Position numbers and translations under genes: made by a program. 47,090 nt of DNA, taken from the sequence record NC_019723.1; one strand, written 5' to 3'. Below, one piece after another: positions 4,248 through 47,090 of the stretch. This stretch comes from Escherichia phage HK630. The stretch's first letter is position 1. Every line of letters starts with the position of its first letter. Under the pieces are notes generated by a model. It had not been told where the DNA came from. It saw only the letters and a list, made by a program, of their open reading frames with translations, and made no database searches.

Positions 4248-5547
4248 TCTCCCGCATATTGCCAGCATGGCCTTTAATGAGCCGCTGATGCTTGAACCCG
4301 CCTATGCGCGGGTTTTCTTTTGTGCGCTTGCAGGCCAGCTTGGGATCAGCAGCCTGACGGATGCGGTGTCCGGCGACAGCCTGACTGCCCAGGAGGCACT
4401 CGCGACGCTGGCATTATCCGGTGATGATGACGGACCACGACAGGCCCGCAGTTATCAGGTCATGAACGGCATCGCCGTGCTGCCGGTGTCCGGCACGCTG
4501 GTCAGCCGGACGCGGGCGCTGCAGCCGTACTCGGGGATGACCGGTTACAACGGCATTATCGCCCGTCTGCAACAGGCTGCCAGCGATCCGATGGTGGACG
4601 GCATTCTGCTCGATATGGACACGCCCGGCGGGATGGTGGCGGGGGCATTTGACTGCGCTGACATCATCGCCCGTGTGCGTGACATAAAACCGGTATGGGC
4701 GCTTGCCAACGACATGAACTGCAGTGCAGGTCAGTTGCTTGCCAGTGCCGCCTCCCGGCGTCTGGTCACGCAGACCGCCCGGACAGGCTCCATCGGCGTC
4801 ATGATGGCTCACAGTAATTACGGTGCTGCGCTGGAGAAACAGGGTGTGGAAATCACGCTGATTTACAGCGGCAGCCATAAGGTGGATGGCAACCCCTACA
4901 GCCATCTTCCGGATGACGTCCGGGAGACACTGCAGTCCCGGATGGACGCAACCCGCCAGATGTTTGCGCAGAAGGTGTCGGCATATACCGGCCTGTCCGT
5001 GCAGGTTGTGCTGGATACCGAGGCTGCAGTGTACAGCGGTCAGGAGGCCATTGATGCCGGACTGGCTGATGAACTTGTTAACAGCACCGATGCGATCACC
5101 GTCATGCGTGATGCACTGGATGCACGTAAATCCCGTCTCTCAGGAGGGCGAATGACCAAAGAGACTCAATCAACAACTGTTTCAGCCACTGCTTCGCAGG
5201 CTGACGTTACTGACGTGGTGCCAGCGACGGAGGGCGAGAACGCCAGCGCGGCGCAGCCGGACGTGAACGCGCAGATCACCGCAGCGGTTGCGGCAGAAAA
5301 CAGCCGCATTATGGGGATCCTCAACTGTGAGGAGGCTCACGGACGCGAAGAACAGGCACGCGTGCTGGCAGAAACCCCCGGTATGACCGTGAAAACGGCC
5401 CGCCGCATTCTGGCCGCAGCACCACAGAGTGCACAGGCGCGCAGTGACACTGCGCTGGATCGTCTGATGCAGGGGGCACCGGCACCGCTGGCTGCAGGTA
5501 ACCCGGCATCTGATGCCGTTAACGATTTGCTGAACACACCAGTGTAA
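4228..5547 (+). CDS. C: capsid assembly protease C (GTG start)
   Basis: 439-aa product from GTG at 4228 (VTAELRNLPHIASMAFNEPL...), overlapping the B stop; the longer 484-aa ORF-track frame is treated as upstream read-through. Confidence 0.9.
4942..5547 (+). CDS. nu3: scaffolding protein Nu3 (in-frame internal start within C)
   Basis: ATG at 4942 (MDATRQMFAQK...) in the C frame, 201 aa; lambda Nu3 arrangement. Confidence 0.8.
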   Translation: MDATRQMFAQKVSAYTGLSVQVVLDTEAAVYSGQEAIDAGLADELVNSTDAITVMRDALDARKSRLSGGRMTKETQSTTVSATASQADVTDVVPATEGENASAAQPDVNAQITAAVAAENSRIMGILNCEEAHGREEQARVLAETPGMTVKTARRILAAAPQSAQARSDTALDRLMQGAPAPLAAGNPASDAVNDLLNTPV

Positions 5548-5889: not shown

Positions 5890-5944
5890 CTTTACCCTTC
5901 ATCACTAAAGGCCGCCTGTGCGGCTTTTTTTACGGGATTTTTTT

Positions 5945-6970
5945 ATGTCGATGTACACAACCGCCCAACTGCTGGCGGCAAATGAGCAGAAATTTAAGTT
6001 TGATCCGCTGTTTCTGCGTCTCTTTTTCCGTGAGAGCTATCCCTTCACCACGGAGAAAGTCTATCTCTCACAAATTCCGGGACTGGTAAACATGGCGCTG
6101 TACGTTTCGCCGATTGTTTCCGGTGAGGTTATCCGTTCCCGTGGCGGCTCCACCTCTGAATTTACGCCGGGATATGTCAAGCCGAAGCATGAAGTGAATC
6201 CGCAGATGACCCTGCGTCGCCTGCCGGATGAAGATCCGCAGAATCTGGCGGACCCGGCTTACCGCCGCCGTCGCATCATCATGCAGAACATGCGTGACGA
6301 AGAGCTGGCCATTGCTCAGGTCGAAGAGATGCAGGCAGTTTCTGCCGTGCTTAAGGGCAAATACACCATGACCGGTGAAGCCTTCGATCCGGTTGAGGTG
6401 GATATGGGCCGCAGTGAGGAGAATAACATCACGCAGTCCGGCGGCACGGAGTGGAGCAAGCGTGACAAGTCCACGTATGACCCGACCGACGATATCGAAG
6501 CCTACGCGCTGAACGCCAGCGGTGTGGTGAATATCATCGTGTTCGATCCGAAAGGCTGGGCGCTGTTCCGTTCCTTCAAAGCCGTCAAGGAGAAGCTGGA
6601 TACCCGTCGTGGCTCTAATTCCGAGCTGGAGACAGCGGTGAAAGACCTGGGCAAAGCGGTGTCCTATAAGGGGATGTATGGCGATGTGGCCATCGTCGTG
6701 TATTCCGGACAGTACGTGGAAAACGGCGTCAAAAAGAACTTCCTGCCGGACAACACGATGGTGCTGGGGAACACTCAGGCACGCGGTCTGCGCACCTATG
6801 GCTGCATTCAGGATGCGGACGCACAGCGCGAAGGCATTAACGCCTCTGCCCGTTACCCGAAAAACTGGGTGACCACCGGCGATCCGGCGCGTGAGTTCAC
6901 CATGATTCAGTCAGCACCGCTGATGCTGCTGGCTGACCCTGATGAGTTCGTGTCCGTACAACTGGCGTAA
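5945..6970 (+). CDS. E: major capsid protein E
   Basis: 341 aa starting MSMYTTAQLLAANEQKFKFDPLFLRLFFRESY...; lambda gpE. Confidence 0.96.
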   Translation: MSMYTTAQLLAANEQKFKFDPLFLRLFFRESYPFTTEKVYLSQIPGLVNMALYVSPIVSGEVIRSRGGSTSEFTPGYVKPKHEVNPQMTLRRLPDEDPQNLADPAYRRRRIIMQNMRDEELAIAQVEEMQAVSAVLKGKYTMTGEAFDPVEVDMGRSEENNITQSGGTEWSKRDKSTYDPTDDIEAYALNASGVVNIIVFDPKGWALFRSFKAVKEKLDTRRGSNSELETAVKDLGKAVSYKGMYGDVAIVVYSGQYVENGVKKNFLPDNTMVLGNTQARGLRTYGCIQDADAQREGINASARYPKNWVTTGDPAREFTMIQSAPLMLLADPDEFVSVQLA

Positions 6971-10359: not shown

Positions 10360-12913
10360 ACCGGTAGGCGATCTGGTCGTTGATTTGAGTCTGGATGCGG
10401 CCAGATTTGACGAGCAGATGGCCAGAGTCAGGCGTCATTTTTCTGGTACGGAAAGTGATGCGAAAAAAACAGCGGCAGTCGTTGAACAGTCGCTGAGCCG
10501 ACAGGCGCTGGCTGCACAGAAAGCGGGGATTTCCGTCGGGCAGTATAAAGCCGCCATGCGTATGCTGCCTGCACAGTTCACCGACGTGGCCACGCAGCTT
10601 GCAGGCGGGCAAAGTCCGTGGCTGATCCTGCTGCAACAGGGGGGGCAGGTGAAGGACTCCTTCGGCGGGATGATCCCCATGTTCAGGGGGCTTGCCGGTG
10701 CGATCACCCTGCCGATGGTGGGGGCCACCTCGCTGGCGGTGGCGACCGGTGCGCTGGCGTATGCCTGGTATCAGGGCAACTCAACCCTGTCCGATTTCAA
10801 CAAAACGCTGGTCCTTTCCGGCAATCAGGCGGGACTGACGGCAGATCGTATGCTGGTCCTGTCCAGAGCCGGGCAGGCGGCAGGGCTGACGTTTAACCAG
10901 ACCAGCGAGTCACTCAGCGCACTGGTTAAGGCGGGGGTAAGCGGTGAGGCTCAGATTGCGTCCATCAGCCAGAGTGTGGCGCGTTTCTCCTCTGCATCCG
11001 GCGTGGAGGTGGACAAGGTCGCTGAAGCCTTCGGGAAGCTGACCACAGACCCGACGTCGGGGCTGACGGCGATGGCTCGCCAGTTCCATAACGTGTCGGC
11101 GGAGCAGATTGCGTATGTTGCTCAGTTGCAGCGTTCCGGCGATGAAGCCGGGGCATTGCAGGCGGCGAACGAGGCCGCAACGAAAGGGTTTGATGACCAG
11201 ACCCGCCGCCTGAAAGAGAACATGGGCACGCTGGAGACCTGGGCAGACAGGACTGCGCGGGCATTCAAATCCATGTGGGATGCGGTGCTGGATATTGGTC
11301 GTCCTGATACCGCGCAGGAGATGCTGATTAAGGCAGAGGCTGCGTATAAGAAAGCAGACGACATCTGGAATCTGCGCAAGGATGATTATTTTGTTAACGA
11401 TGAAGCGCGGGCGCGTTACTGGGATGATCGTGAAAAGGCCCGTCTTGCGCTTGAAGCCGCCCGAAAGAAGGCTGAGCAGCAGACTCAACAGGACAAAAAT
11501 GCGCAGCAGCAGAGCGATACCGAAGCGTCACGGCTGAAATATACCGAAGAGGCGCAGAAGGCTTACGAACGGCTGCAGACGCCGCTGGAGAAATATACCG
11601 CCCGTCAGGAAGAACTGAACAAGGCACTGAAAGACGGGAAAATCCTGCAGGCGGATTACAACACGCTGATGGCGGCGGCGAAAAAGGATTATGAAGCGAC
11701 GCTGAAAAAGCCGAAACAGTCCAGCGTGAAGGTGTCTGCGGGCGATCGTCAGGAAGACAGTGCTCATGCTGCCCTGCTGACGCTTCAGGCAGAACTCCGG
11801 ACGCTGGAGAAGCATGCCGGAGCAAATGAGAAAATCAGCCAGCAGCGCCGGGATTTGTGGAAGGCGGAGAGTCAGTTCGCGGTACTGGAGGAGGCGGCGC
11901 AACGTCGCCAGCTGTCTGCACAGGAGAAATCCCTGCTGGCGCATAAAGATGAGACGCTGGAGTACAAACGCCAGCTGGCTGCACTTGGCGACAAGGTTAC
12001 GTATCAGGAGCGCCTGAACGCGCTGGCGCAGCAGGCGGATAAATTCGCACAGCAGCAACGGGCAAAACGGGCCGCCATTGATGCGAAAAGCCGGGGGCTG
12101 ACTGACCGGCAGGCAGAACGGGAAGCCACGGAACAGCGCCTGAAGGAACAGTATGGCGATAATCCGCTGGCGCTGAATAACGTCATGTCAGAGCAGAAAA
12201 AGACCTGGGCGGCTGAAGACCAGCTTCGCGGGAACTGGATGGCAGGCCTGAAGTCCGGCTGGAGTGAGTGGGAAGAGAGCGCCACGGACAGTATGTCGCA
12301 GGTAAAAAGTGCAGCCACGCAGACCTTTGATGGTATTGCACAGAATATGGCGGCGATGCTGACCGGCAGTGAGCAGAACTGGCGCAGCTTCACCCGTTCC
12401 GTGCTGTCCATGATGACAGAAATTCTGCTTAAGCAGGCAATGGTGGGGATTGTCGGGAGTATCGGCAGCGCCATTGGCGGGGCTGTTGGTGGCGGCGCAT
12501 CCGCGTCAGGCGGTACAGCCATTCAGGCCGCTGCGGCGAAATTCCATTTTGCAACCGGAGGATTTACGGGAACCGGCGGCAAATATGAGCCAGCGGGGAT
12601 TGTTCACCGTGGTGAGTTTGTCTTCACGAAGGAGGCAACCAGCCGGATTGGCGTGGGGAATCTTTACCGGCTGATGCGCGGCTATGCCACCGGCGGTTAT
12701 GTCGGTACACCGGGCAGCATGGCAGACAGCCGGTCGCAGGCGTCCGGGACGTTTGAGCAGAATAACCATGTGGTGATTAACAACGACGGCACGAACGGGC
12801 AGATAGGTCCGGCTGCTCTGAAGGCGGTGTATGACATGGCCCGCAAGGGTGCCCGTGATGAAATTCAGACACAGATGCGTGATGGTGGCCTGTTCTCCGG
12901 AGGTGGACGATGA
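10352..12913 (+). CDS. H: tail tape measure protein H
   Basis: 853-aa ORF with an extended Ala/Gln/Glu-rich helical region; lambda gpH size and position. Confidence 0.95.
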   Translation: MAEPVGDLVVDLSLDAARFDEQMARVRRHFSGTESDAKKTAAVVEQSLSRQALAAQKAGISVGQYKAAMRMLPAQFTDVATQLAGGQSPWLILLQQGGQVKDSFGGMIPMFRGLAGAITLPMVGATSLAVATGALAYAWYQGNSTLSDFNKTLVLSGNQAGLTADRMLVLSRAGQAAGLTFNQTSESLSALVKAGVSGEAQIASISQSVARFSSASGVEVDKVAEAFGKLTTDPTSGLTAMARQFHNVSAEQIAYVAQLQRSGDEAGALQAANEAATKGFDDQTRRLKENMGTLETWADRTARAFKSMWDAVLDIGRPDTAQEMLIKAEAAYKKADDIWNLRKDDYFVNDEARARYWDDREKARLALEAARKKAEQQTQQDKNAQQQSDTEASRLKYTEEAQKAYERLQTPLEKYTARQEELNKALKDGKILQADYNTLMAAAKKDYEATLKKPKQSSVKVSAGDRQEDSAHAALLTLQAELRTLEKHAGANEKISQQRRDLWKAESQFAVLEEAAQRRQLSAQEKSLLAHKDETLEYKRQLAALGDKVTYQERLNALAQQADKFAQQQRAKRAAIDAKSRGLTDRQAEREATEQRLKEQYGDNPLALNNVMSEQKKTWAAEDQLRGNWMAGLKSGWSEWEESATDSMSQVKSAATQTFDGIAQNMAAMLTGSEQNWRSFTRSVLSMMTEILLKQAMVGIVGSIGSAIGGAVGGGASASGGTAIQAAAAKFHFATGGFTGTGGKYEPAGIVHRGEFVFTKEATSRIGVGNLYRLMRGYATGGYVGTPGSMADSRSQASGTFEQNNHVVINNDGTNGQIGPAALKAVYDMARKGARDEIQTQMRDGGLFSGGGR

Positions 12914-45151: not shown

Positions 45152-45440
45152 GGTGTTATTCCCGATGCTTTTTGAAGTTCGCAGAATCGTATGTGTAGAA
45201 AATTAAACAAACCCTAAACAATGAGTTGAAATTTCATATTGTTAATATTTATTAATGTATGTCAGGTGCGATGAATCGTCATTGTATTCCCGGATTAACT
45301 ATGTCCACAGCCCTGACGGGGAACTTCTCTGCGGGAGTGTCCGGGAATAATTAAAACGATGCACACAGGGTTTAGCGCGTACACGTATTGCATTATGCCA
45401 ACGCCCCGGTGCTGACACGGAAGAAACCGGACGTTATGAT

Positions 45441-45974
45441 TTAGCGTGGAAAGATTTGTGTAGTGTTCTGAATGCTCTCAGTAAATAGTAATGAATTATC
45501 AAAGGTATAGTAATATCTTTTATGTTCATGGATATTTGTAACCCATCGGAAAACTCCTGCTTTAGCAAGATTTTCCCTGTATTGCTGAAATGTGATTTCT
45601 CTTGATTTCAACCTATCATAGGACGTTTCTATAAGATGCGTGTTTCTTGAGAATTTAACATTTACAACCTTTTTAAGTCCTTTTATTAACACGGTGTTAT
45701 CGTTTTCTAACACGATGTGAATATTATCTGTGGCTAGATAGTAAATATAATGTGAGACGTTGTGACGTTTTAGTTCAGAATAAAACAATTCACAGTCTAA
45801 ATCTTTTCGCACTTGATCGAATATTTCTTTAAAAATGGCAACCTGAGCCATTGGTAAAACCTTCCATGTGATACGAGGGCGCGTAGTTTGCATTATCGTT
45901 TTTATCGTTTCAATCTGGTCTGACCTCCTTGTGTTTTGTTGATGATTTATGTCAAATATTAGGAATGTTTTCAC
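45441..45974 (-). CDS. hypothetical protein (lambda right-arm ORF, putative envelope protein)
   Basis: 177-aa AT-rich ORF between bor and cos. Confidence 0.6.
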
Positions 45975-46136
45975 TTAATAGTATTGGTTGCGTAACAAAG
46001 TGCGGTCCTGCTGGCATTCTGGAGGGAAATACAACCGACAGATGTATGTAAGGCCAACGTGCTCAAATCTTCATACAGAAAGATTTGAAGTAATATTTTA
46101 ACCGCTAGATGAAGAGCAAGCGCATGGAGCGACAAA

Positions 46137-46343
46137 ATGAATAAAGAACAATCTGCTGATGATCCCTCCGTGGATCTGATTCGTGTAAAAAATATGCTTA
46201 ATAGCACCATTTCTATGAGTTACCCTGATGTTGTAATTGCATGTATAGAACATAAGGTGTCTCTGGAAGCATTCAGAGCAATTGAGGCAGCGTTGGTGAA
46301 GCACGATAATAATATGAAGGATTATTCCCTGGTGGTTGACTGA
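46137..46343 (+). CDS. hypothetical protein (lambda right-arm ORF)
   Basis: 68-aa ORF. Confidence 0.45.
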
Positions 46344-46507
46344 TCACCATAACTGCTAATCATTCAAACTATTTAGTCTGTGACAGAGCCAACACGCAGT
46401 CTGTCACTGTCAGGAAAGTGGTAAAACTGCAACTCAATTACTGCAATGCCCTCGTAATTAAGTGAATTTACAATATCGTCCTGTTCGGAGGGAAGAACGC
46501 GGGATGT

Positions 46508-46702
46508 TCATTCTTCATCACTTTTAATTGATGTATATGCTCTCTTTTCTGACGTTAGTCTCCGACGGCAGGCTTCAATGACCCAGGCTGAGAAATTCCC
46601 GGACCCTTTTTGCTCAAGAGCGATGTTAATTTGTTCAATCATTTGGTTAGGAAAGCGGATGTTGCGGGTTGTTGTTCTGCGGGTTCTGTTCTTCGTTGAC
46701 AT
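46508..46702 (-). CDS. small ribbon-helix-helix-like DNA-binding protein
   Basis: 64 aa; basic N-terminus then RNIRFPNQMIEQINIALEQKG...FSAWVIEACRRRL, a beta-strand/helix/helix pattern typical of Arc/CopG-type proteins. Confidence 0.45.
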   Translation of the reverse strand: MSTKNRTRRTTTRNIRFPNQMIEQINIALEQKGSGNFSAWVIEACRRRLTSEKRAYTSIKSDEE

Positions 46703-46869
46703 GAGGTTGCCCCGTATTCAGTGTCGCTGATTTGTATTGTCTGAAGTTGTTTTTACGTTAAGTTGATGCAGATCAATTAATACGATACCTGCGTCATAAT
46801 TGATTATTTGACGTGGTTTGATGGCCTCCACGCACGTTGTGATATGTAGATGATAATCATTATCACTTT

Positions 46870-47090
46870 ACGGGTCCTTTCCGGTGATCCGACAGGTTAC
46901 GGGGCGGCGACCTCGCGGGTTTTCGCTATTTATGAAAATTTTCCGGTTTAAGGCGTTTCCGTTCTTCTTCGTCATAACTTAATGTTTTTATTTAAAATAC
47001 CCTCTGAAAAGAAAGGAAACGACAGGTGCTGAAAGCGAGCTTTTTGGCCTCTGTCGTTTCCTTTCTCTGTTTTTGTCCGTGGAATGAACA
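46870..47090. other. cos: cos region (nick-site overhang GGGCGGCGACCT at 46902-46913, plus flanking terminase-binding sequence)
   Basis: Exact lambda left-end sequence GGGCGGCGACCTCGCGGGTTTTCGCTATTTATGAAAATTTTCCGG... begins at 46902 and runs to the window end, joining the Nu1 start at position 1. Confidence 0.9.

Follow-up and report, generated by a model that had tools for sequence, protein, structure and literature searches.

What does the short minus-strand open reading frame (ORF) that lies just before cos in Escherichia phage HK630 encode, and what might its product do? We addressed this question in the 47,090-nt window formed by record NC_019723.1, in which an earlier note, made from the letters of the DNA, had marked a 64-codon minus-strand ORF next to cos as an orphan ribbon-helix-helix (RHH)-like protein and a possible small regulator. 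Coordinates are positions in this window, and lambda coordinates are given separately. The ORF, which we call the ylcI-like gene, runs from an ATG to a TGA as described and corresponds to complement(48109..48303) in lambda numbering. The cos nick (46901/46902) lies 200 bp from its start codon, which confirms the position next to cos. With the lysis genes on one side and cos/Nu1 on the other, it is the last gene before cos, and it is encoded opposite to the late (pR') transcript. We conclude that the ORF is a genuine member of the YlcI/YnfO (DUF3950) gene family, and that its product probably has the RHH fold and probably acts as a DNA-binding regulator in the prophage state. The family name, the antisense orientation to the late operon and a neighbouring DUF1398 gene are points that the earlier note missed.

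Membership of the family was unambiguous. The protein matched Pfam DUF3950 (PF13132) with an E value of 1.9e-20 (72.8 bits against a curated cut-off of 25), NCBIfam YlcI_YnfO_N (NF041551) with 37.6 bits against a curated cut-off of 30, and PHROG 949 with 2.5e-35, and it was identical in 64/64 residues to YlcI of the K-12 prophage DLP12. Its approximately 1,000 homologues are 56-82 aa long and confined to Enterobacterales, Pasteurellaceae and Orbaceae. Comparison of codons 1-50 with the copy of a Stx2a (Shiga toxin 2a) prophage gave 18 synonymous and 8 non-synonymous differences (ratio of non-synonymous to synonymous rates, dN/dS, 0.08), and nucleotide homology to the Stx-phage copy ran from the ATG to approximately codon 50, with both flanks unrelated. 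As the similarity is bounded by the ATG and by this codon, the coding core is the conserved unit. Conservation of the protein extended down to approximately 32% identity, in unrelated DNA contexts. In a 49-sequence alignment, I15, R16, F17, I25, N36, F37, S38, W40, V41, A44 and C45 were invariant, and the lambda protein carries the family core I-R-F-P ... N-F-S-A-W-V-x-[ED]-A-C, followed after approximately codon 50 by a C-terminal tail that differs between prophage types. DNA resembling the gene-plus-cos segment (46400-46960) was present in 4915 of 5426 complete E. coli genomes, at a median of two places per genome. The frame at 46508..46702 (-) is a real, conserved gene under purifying selection.

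The reference lambda and HK629 records leave this ORF unannotated, phage O276 carries it as 'YlcI/YnfO family protein', and other lambda records have it as 'hypothetical protein'. The gene and its family are already catalogued; what is new here is the functional assignment as an RHH regulator. YlcI and YnfO are listed as uncharacterised in K-12 (PMC11551758), so family membership alone gives no function, and a literature search found no paper assigning a role to the YlcI/DUF3950 gene.

The layout of the protein is that of Arc/CopG-type proteins: a first helix follows a short strand (..NIRFP), and a loop with N-F-S at its end leads into a second helix, which carries W-V..A-C. An AlphaFold2 (AF2) monomer model, with a mean predicted local distance difference test score (pLDDT) of 69, had an extended N-terminus and helices at residues 19-32 and 37-63. 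The top Foldseek match was the Arc-operator complex 1par, in a ranking made up mostly of RHH proteins (NikR, ParD, the PrpA RHH domain, ArtA, pCXC100 ParB and Reg576) with E values of at least 0.86 throughout, and over all fold searches the matches were mainly to RHH proteins (Arc, NikR, ParD, PutA-RHH and the CopG family). Against PHROG profiles the lambda protein itself reached E=0.02 with a HicB-like family (profile positions 98-143 of 342) and E=0.19 with an Arc-like family. Among the 49 family members, 25 matched the HicB-like PHROG 497 (best 2.2e-5), and at most 8 matched each of the Arc-like PHROGs 228, 6506 and 582 (best 1.3e-4). The match to Pfam HicB_lk_antitox was weak, an hhalign comparison of the family with a single Arc sequence gave 3.8% probability with the strand and helix A aligned in register, and sequence searches of the PDB with the protein and with the family profile returned chance matches only (ribosomal protein L16 and an EAL protein). 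We consider an RHH fold probable for the ylcI-like protein, each line of evidence for this short lambda protein being below formal significance. The RHH pattern read earlier from the letters was therefore upheld by the invariant I-R-F, N-F-S and W-V..A-C residues, the AF2 helices, the fold-search matches and the family-level outcome of the profile comparison that the earlier note had proposed.

What such a protein might do is suggested by where its relatives are found. Lambdoid prophages always carry the gene on the strand opposite the late operon, and no other gene separates it from the packaging module. This module is cos-Nu1 in lambda, DLP12 and Qin; in HK97-type Stx and other E. coli prophages it is HNH-TerS-TerL (TerS and TerL being the small and large terminase subunits), and there the gene starts 41 bp from the divergent HNH gene. 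The majority of the family, though, resides in phage satellites of the phage-inducible chromosomal island (PICI) type, including capsid-forming ones. There DUF3950 is the sole gene on its strand, convergent with a rightward series of int, an optional further gene, alpA and an optional antA, and separated by approximately 180 bp from a divergent series of small ORFs, primase and further genes up to capsid. In a species-level scan, approximately 28 of the 38 loci with usable flanks had this layout, written with primase on the minus strand, divergent from DUF3950 on the plus strand, which converges on (AntA/AlpA)/Int on the minus strand. A few copies lie in other islands or beside chromosomal genes, and the contexts of three diverged members, from Salmonella (P0185), Klebsiella (P0175) and Rouxiella (P0155, beside cytochrome bd genes), were uninformative.

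The approximately 180-bp divergent region of the satellites contains three 12-bp GTG-N6-CAC repeats, whose positions relative to the start codon of DUF3950 are about -99, -76 and -30. Copies 1 and 2 are spaced 23 bp, and directly after copy 2 stands a conserved [AG]TCAA element that reads, on the other strand, as the -35 box TTGAC of the primase-side operon. Copy 2 lies in the spacer of this primase-side promoter, copy 1 at its -10/+1 region, and copy 3 abuts a TATAGT/TATGGT -10 box ahead of DUF3950; from this placement of repeats and promoter boxes, the arrangement would have the geometry of a repressor with autoregulation. The middle six bases of the repeats are constant within an element and different between elements: counted against copy 2, the mismatches of copies 1 and 3 summed on average to 5.4 within loci, 9.25 between operator classes and 11.5 after shuffling, and the within-locus median was reached by 0 of 1750 shuffles.

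These operator cores varied together with the predicted DNA-reading strand of the protein. Over 34 loci, the core correlated with the five residues before IRF (Spearman 0.44, against 0.08 for the rest of the protein), and the partial correlation of core and strand, controlling for the rest of the protein, was 0.445 (label-permutation p 0.0005). In Orbaceae, where the helices are nearly identical, four strand variants were found, each with its own repeat (Table 1). In the alignment the variable positions fall into separate sites, namely the operator cores and codons 11-15; conserved promoter, ribosome-site and leading-codon sequence lies between these sites, so that they do not form one swapped block. 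Such covariation is what strand-mediated base readout by an RHH protein predicts; it is covariation and not proof, and the satellite DUF3950 relatives look like operator-binding repressors. At the family level, the operator-like repeats and the covariation of strand and operator thus lend support to the earlier suggestion of a small regulator.

Several observations weigh against carrying this reading over to lambda. The covariation comes from another subfamily (32-47% identity) in another kind of element, and as strand residues and operators are physically linked they could have been co-inherited; it is for the satellite relatives that covariation supports DNA recognition through strand residues. 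Paired GTG-N6-CAC sites of the satellite type were sought across the whole window and none were found, and the combination T-T-T-R-N that precedes I-R-F in the lambda protein is absent from the satellite set. Two palindromic candidates lie between the lambda start codon and cos (Table 1), and the span of one of them, 46772-46804, overlaps the region of the satellite operators O1 and O2 (approximately -102 to -65). Neither was significant in the upstream 200 nt: the observed count was reached in 7 of 100 shuffles for the inverted repeat and in 16 of 100 for the 15-bp palindrome. A Stx-type copy with the same strand residues has unrelated flanks, and the only motifs common to these and the lambda flanks were two AT-rich 9-mers, no more than expected by chance and not in the same order. 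A consensus scan found no minus-strand sigma-70-type promoter upstream of the gene and no intrinsic terminator downstream. Lastly, the AF2 model is a monomer with a pLDDT of 69 in which the strand, which needs the partner subunit to form, is absent.

Taking these points into account, we regard lambda YlcI as a small, probably dimeric RHH DNA-binding protein that acts, on balance, as a regulator or repressor made in the prophage state. We infer from sequence the RHH dimer, the binding of DNA by the lambda protein, the timing of its expression and its repressor role. In the proposed mechanism, residues ~12-18 (T-R-N-I-R-F-P) of each of two subunits would pair as a ribbon of two strands, which would read bases in the DNA major groove; the dimer core would consist of helices 19-32 and 37-50, and the invariant N-F-S would cap helix B and contact the phosphate backbone. 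By analogy with the satellite relatives that face a primase operon, the lambda protein would be a sequence-specific repressor or autoregulator, with the palindromes between its start codon and cosQ as candidate targets and the downstream DUF1398 gene as a candidate for its control. The antisense orientation to the late operon is common to lambda, DLP12, Qin and the HK97-type Stx prophages, and as the gene is antisense to the late transcript, its expression would be expected in the prophage or early state, and convergent late transcription would be expected to silence it. There is indirect evidence that ylcI is transcribed in K-12: ybcW-ylcI is among the convergent overlapping transcript pairs seen in at least half of K-12 RNA-seq samples (PMC12288877). 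Lambda exchanges a 3.35-kb segment freely with DLP12, and the recombinants, selected via a kanamycin cassette in ybcV, are active phages (PMC3945230). As the ylcI-like gene lies within this segment, it is probably not needed for lytic growth.

Published data under the name 'orf-64' are easily mis-assigned to this cos-proximal ORF. In the lambda literature 'orf-64' is lambdap73, another 64-codon frame at pR'/6S RNA between Q and S, and we rejected both the lysogen microarray signal and the CRISPR interference (CRISPRi) result reported for 'orf-64' as data on the ylcI-like gene, as both concern lambdap73. A published two-hybrid match between Nu1 and 'Orf64' was likewise rejected as evidence on the ylcI-like protein: the screen used the 73 UniProt lambda proteins of J02459, and because J02459 does not annotate the ORF and 'orf-64' is lambdap73, the hit cannot be attributed to it.

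Some satellites encode fusion proteins of 120-142 aa (P0198, P0255, P0260-P0263), a rare architecture in which a DUF3950 domain is joined to a copy of a small terminase's N-terminal DNA-binding segment. The TerS-like segment matched positions 1-53 of Pfam Terminase_2 above its cut-off, and in one locus (L003) shared 67% identity with the TerS that the adjacent prophage encodes at 10464-10925. In P0262, which has the same architecture and C-terminal domain, DUF3950 is replaced by another N-terminal module with an RHH-like pattern as judged by eye, for which no Pfam RHH match was obtained. These fusions may be packaging-site decoys or regulators.

We weighed other explanations of the ylcI-like gene against an RHH regulator. 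That the frame arose by chance, or that conservation belongs to a DNA or RNA element near cos, would fit its missing annotation in the reference lambda and HK629 records, its weak Shine-Dalgarno sequence and the lack of a predicted promoter; it is effectively refuted by the 18 synonymous changes tolerated at a dN/dS of 0.08, by protein conservation to approximately 32% identity in unrelated DNA and by Pfam and NCBIfam scores above their cut-offs, and Rfam had no match in the ORF. The position of the gene could instead reflect a packaging accessory factor, which would bind the small terminase subunit, or DNA at or close to cos, and would modulate cos recognition or cleavage, or protect the prophage cos. 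The gene is indeed last before cos/terminase in two unrelated modules (lambda Nu1/A and the HK97-like HNH-TerS-TerL), a perfect 15-bp palindrome lies close to cosQ, and satellites fuse DUF3950, or an RHH-like module, to a TerS segment resembling that of the neighbouring prophage. We nevertheless judged this role unlikely, as the regulatory regions of satellites, where most of the family is found, are remote from packaging genes, co-expression with terminase is not expected of a gene that runs antisense to the late transcript, the palindrome is statistically unremarkable and the Nu1-'Orf64' match falls away. A short cos segment (cosQ, cosN and cosB) moreover suffices for packaging of lambda.

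The recurrent DUF1398 neighbour raises the possibility of a lysogenic-conversion cassette, in which the RHH protein and the DUF1398 protein (YbcV/YdfO, lambdap78) would make up a 'moron' of two genes whose expression, its own included, the RHH protein would control. The genes ynfO and ydfO are same-strand neighbours 57 bp apart in Qin-type prophages, and both families are on the same strand in lambda and DLP12, beside the lysogen-expressed bor. We hold this to be rather unlikely, since the pair is interrupted by a convergent ybcW in lambda and DLP12 and absent from Stx/HK97-type prophages and from all satellite loci, and DUF1398 has no known function and no convincing match to a defence-system model. 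RHH is also a common DNA-binding fold of antitoxins, and the weak profile matches include HicB-like antitoxins, so that an antitoxin orphaned by loss of its toxin from a type II pair could be imagined. This was very improbable: no toxin-family gene lies beside the lambdoid prophage or intact satellite copies examined, in agreement with the earlier remark that no toxin is adjacent. A CbtA-family toxin gene was found only approximately 1.8 kb away in one Klebsiella island, and only one degraded island has, upstream, a DUF1778-like/GNAT-like pair as read from ORFs. The C-terminal tail, short and variable, does not resemble a conserved toxin-binding segment, the stand-alone gene is under strong purifying selection, and PADLOC gave no defence-system match for the ylcI-like, DUF1398 or ybcW-like proteins or for one fusion protein. 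The description of the gene as an orphan therefore holds as to a toxin partner, and fails as to neighbours in general, given the same-strand DUF1398 gene that recurs in lambda, DLP12 and Qin-type prophages.

Table 1. Positions of the ylcI-like gene, its surroundings and related features in satellites; L numbers denote the loci compared, each with its own coordinates.
Feature	Position	Strand	Description
ylcI-like gene	46508..46702	(-)	64 aa; protein MSTKNRTRRTTTRNIRFPNQMIEQINIALEQKGSGNFSAWVIEACRRRLTSEKRAYTSIKSDEE
Predicted RHH parts of its product	residues 1-50 and tail		basic arm 1-11; strand ~12-18 (TRNIRFP); helix A 19-32; loop GSGNFS; helix B 37-50; C-terminal tail
Translation-initiation region	46703..46720	(-)	GGGG 7 nt before the ATG, a weak Shine-Dalgarno sequence
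Inverted repeat	46772..46804		ATCAATTAATACG / CGTCATAATTGAT; 13-nt arms, 85% complementary, 7-nt spacer; -102..-70 from the ATG; candidate operator
Perfect 15-bp palindrome	46851..46865		TGATAATCATTATCA; candidate binding site, 6 bp from cosQ
Perfect 8-bp stem	46380..46407		GTGACAGA/TCTGTCAC; 12-nt loop; between the ybcW-like ORF and the ylcI-like gene
ybcW-like ORF (lambdap79)	46137..46343	(+)	68 aa; convergent with the ylcI-like gene
DUF1398 gene (lambdap78; YbcV/YdfO homologue)	45441..45851	(-)	next same-strand gene; PF07166 E 2.2e-46
cosN cohesive-end sequence	46902..46913	(+)	GGGCGGCGACCT; lambda position 1 = window 46902; genome-end marker
Satellite repeat region	L021-L060, ~-110 to -18 upstream of DUF3950		e.g. 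L028 5899-5983; L035 (K. pneumoniae ATCC 13883 element) 5916-5983
Satellite fusion proteins	L004 4714-5103; L003 8001-8429	(+)	DUF3950 + TerS-like segment
Strand variant STTKG			expected repeat GTGCAYATACAC
Strand variant SAKKN			expected repeat GTGTGCGCACA
Strand variant SKLKN (Orbaceae)	L050, L054		repeat GTGTACYTAC
Strand variant SDRKA (Orbaceae)			repeat GTGTAGGCACAC
Strand variant SFTKG (Orbaceae)			repeat GTGCATATACAC, the same as with STTKG proteins of Enterobacterales
Strand variant SKRKD/TRRKD (Orbaceae)			repeat GTCCGCACA

Positions 45400-47090 are 100% identical to HK629, and to lambda J02459 47001-48502 followed by lambda's first 189 bases, and positions 1-24000 are the same as HK629 1-24000 and as the lambda sequence that begins at 190, so that the window holds a complete genome of the lambda/HK629 type, numbered from Nu1. 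The sequence GGGTCCT at 46872-46878 we take to be cosQ. Stx-type and satellite copies of the gene have stronger Shine-Dalgarno sites (GAGG/AGGA) than the lambda copy, and the stem downstream of the gene lacks a T-run and is thus not a canonical terminator. An Rfam scan at a permissive threshold gave no match within or beside the ORF. A 37-codon GTG-initiated frame (46718-46831, minus strand) between the ylcI-like gene and cos, listed as a hypothetical protein in O276 (gene 69) and E26, has no family match and is probably not a gene. Between cosN and the window end, CGTTTCC[GT]TTCT repeats occur in both orientations (46954-46966, 47009-47021 and 47055-47066), with an inverted repeat at 47010-47066, and presumably correspond to the Nu1-binding R elements of cosB; meaningless matches to Rfam miRNA models at 47010-47066 arise from these repeats.

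The convergent ybcW-like ORF separates lambdap78 from the ylcI-like gene in lambda and DLP12, and in Qin-type prophages the DUF1398 gene (ydfO) follows ynfO on the same strand, 57 bp downstream. In phage records lambdap78 is called as 177 aa from a GTG (45441-45974, minus strand) and labelled 'putative envelope protein' or 'head protein'. Its K-12 homologues YbcV and YdfO have 136 aa, which fits the internal Met at 45851, and the 'envelope' and 'head protein' labels appear unsupported.

Other observations concern the family at large. Upstream of DUF3950 in L023-L049, at approximately -160 to -130 (e.g. L028 5837-5871), lies a conserved GC-rich stem-loop (GCCCGG...CCGGGC around GTGTTGGCGCAC); as the primase-side operon would have its 5' leader here, a leader or attenuator function is possible, and AlpA-dependent read-through at this site would be speculation. 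A DUF3950 copy of Rouxiella sp. (L062 5001-5180), 54% identical to the lambda protein, lies between the genes for cytochrome bd oxidase subunit II and a DUF2474 protein, on the same strand as both and with no phage genes within 5 kb, and may be a domesticated copy. In Pasteurella phage Pmp7 (L005, OR544138) a DUF3950 ORF (4853-5032, plus strand) lies opposite an annotated coding sequence for a 224-aa 'transcriptional repressor' (4435-5109, minus strand), whose translation is of low complexity and looks spurious, so that the annotation is probably on the wrong strand. Hundreds of near-identical, error-ridden copies occur on contigs of approximately 3.5 kb in the European Nucleotide Archive (ENA), some of them under the name of Staphylococcus aureus or Veillonella, and the record of 'Campylobacter phage CJLB-4' has an identical copy of the protein. 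These are most likely lambda control DNA or contamination and not true host range, the contigs presumably deriving from the 3.6-kb lambda amplicon of Oxford Nanopore Technologies (ONT).

This conserved gene is missing from the reference annotation of lambda, the reference temperate phage, and assignment to the RHH fold would turn a 'domain of unknown function' into a testable regulator. For Gram-negative PICIs the global repressor 'is unclear' and AlpA is an activator (PMC6092414); the satellite relatives would be a concrete candidate for the gap stated there, that is, for any repressor in these islands, and the table of operator and protein covariation would serve as a testable prediction of specificity. 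The gain for lambda itself is smaller, as the gene is probably accessory. A bolder proposal would be that the DUF3950/YlcI-YnfO proteins are unrecognised Gram-negative PICI repressors with a code linking strand residues to GTG-N6-CAC sites, that the lambdoid copy acts on cos-proximal DNA in the prophage, and that the fusions are decoys or regulators at the packaging site of the helper. As a whole we find this doubtful; if true, the lambdoid copy would guard or occlude the packaging site, block read-through into the terminase genes, or cross-talk with resident satellites.

Comparison with known systems places the ylcI-like gene among several of them. Its nearest counterparts are YlcI (DLP12) and YnfO (Qin) of K-12: DLP12 has the gene order of lambda (bor, ybcV, ybcW, ylcI, then noh/Nu1), and at the sequence level K-12 YlcI and the lambda protein do not differ. 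With bor and the other 'moron' genes between Rz and cos, the gene shares its region, its strand opposite the late transcript and its dispensable appearance. Expression in lysogens (PMC7067206) and a phenotype are documented for bor, and neither is for the ylcI-like gene, which also has no detected flanking promoter or terminator.

In size the protein is similar to Arc/Mnt of phage P22. Arc shares with YlcI the N-[IL]-R-[FW]-P strand motif, the two helices and a G-x-S/N-x-S turn, whereas there is no significant sequence match between Arc and the lambda protein, which has a longer basic N-terminal arm. The operators of the satellite relatives would be 12-bp GTG-N6-CAC units approximately 23 bp apart, a layout that differs from that of the Arc operator. 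The best remote profile similarity of the YlcI/YnfO family is to the C-terminal RHH domain of HicB-type antitoxins (PHROG 497); unlike HicB systems, YlcI/YnfO proteins have neither the HicB N-terminal domain nor a HicA toxin neighbour. The Stl/Rpr master repressors of Gram-positive PICIs, possible functional analogues of the satellite DUF3950 proteins, are unrelated to them in fold and size. Common to the two is a gene that faces away from the replication operon, the promoters between the two transcription units being overlaid by operator-like repeats.

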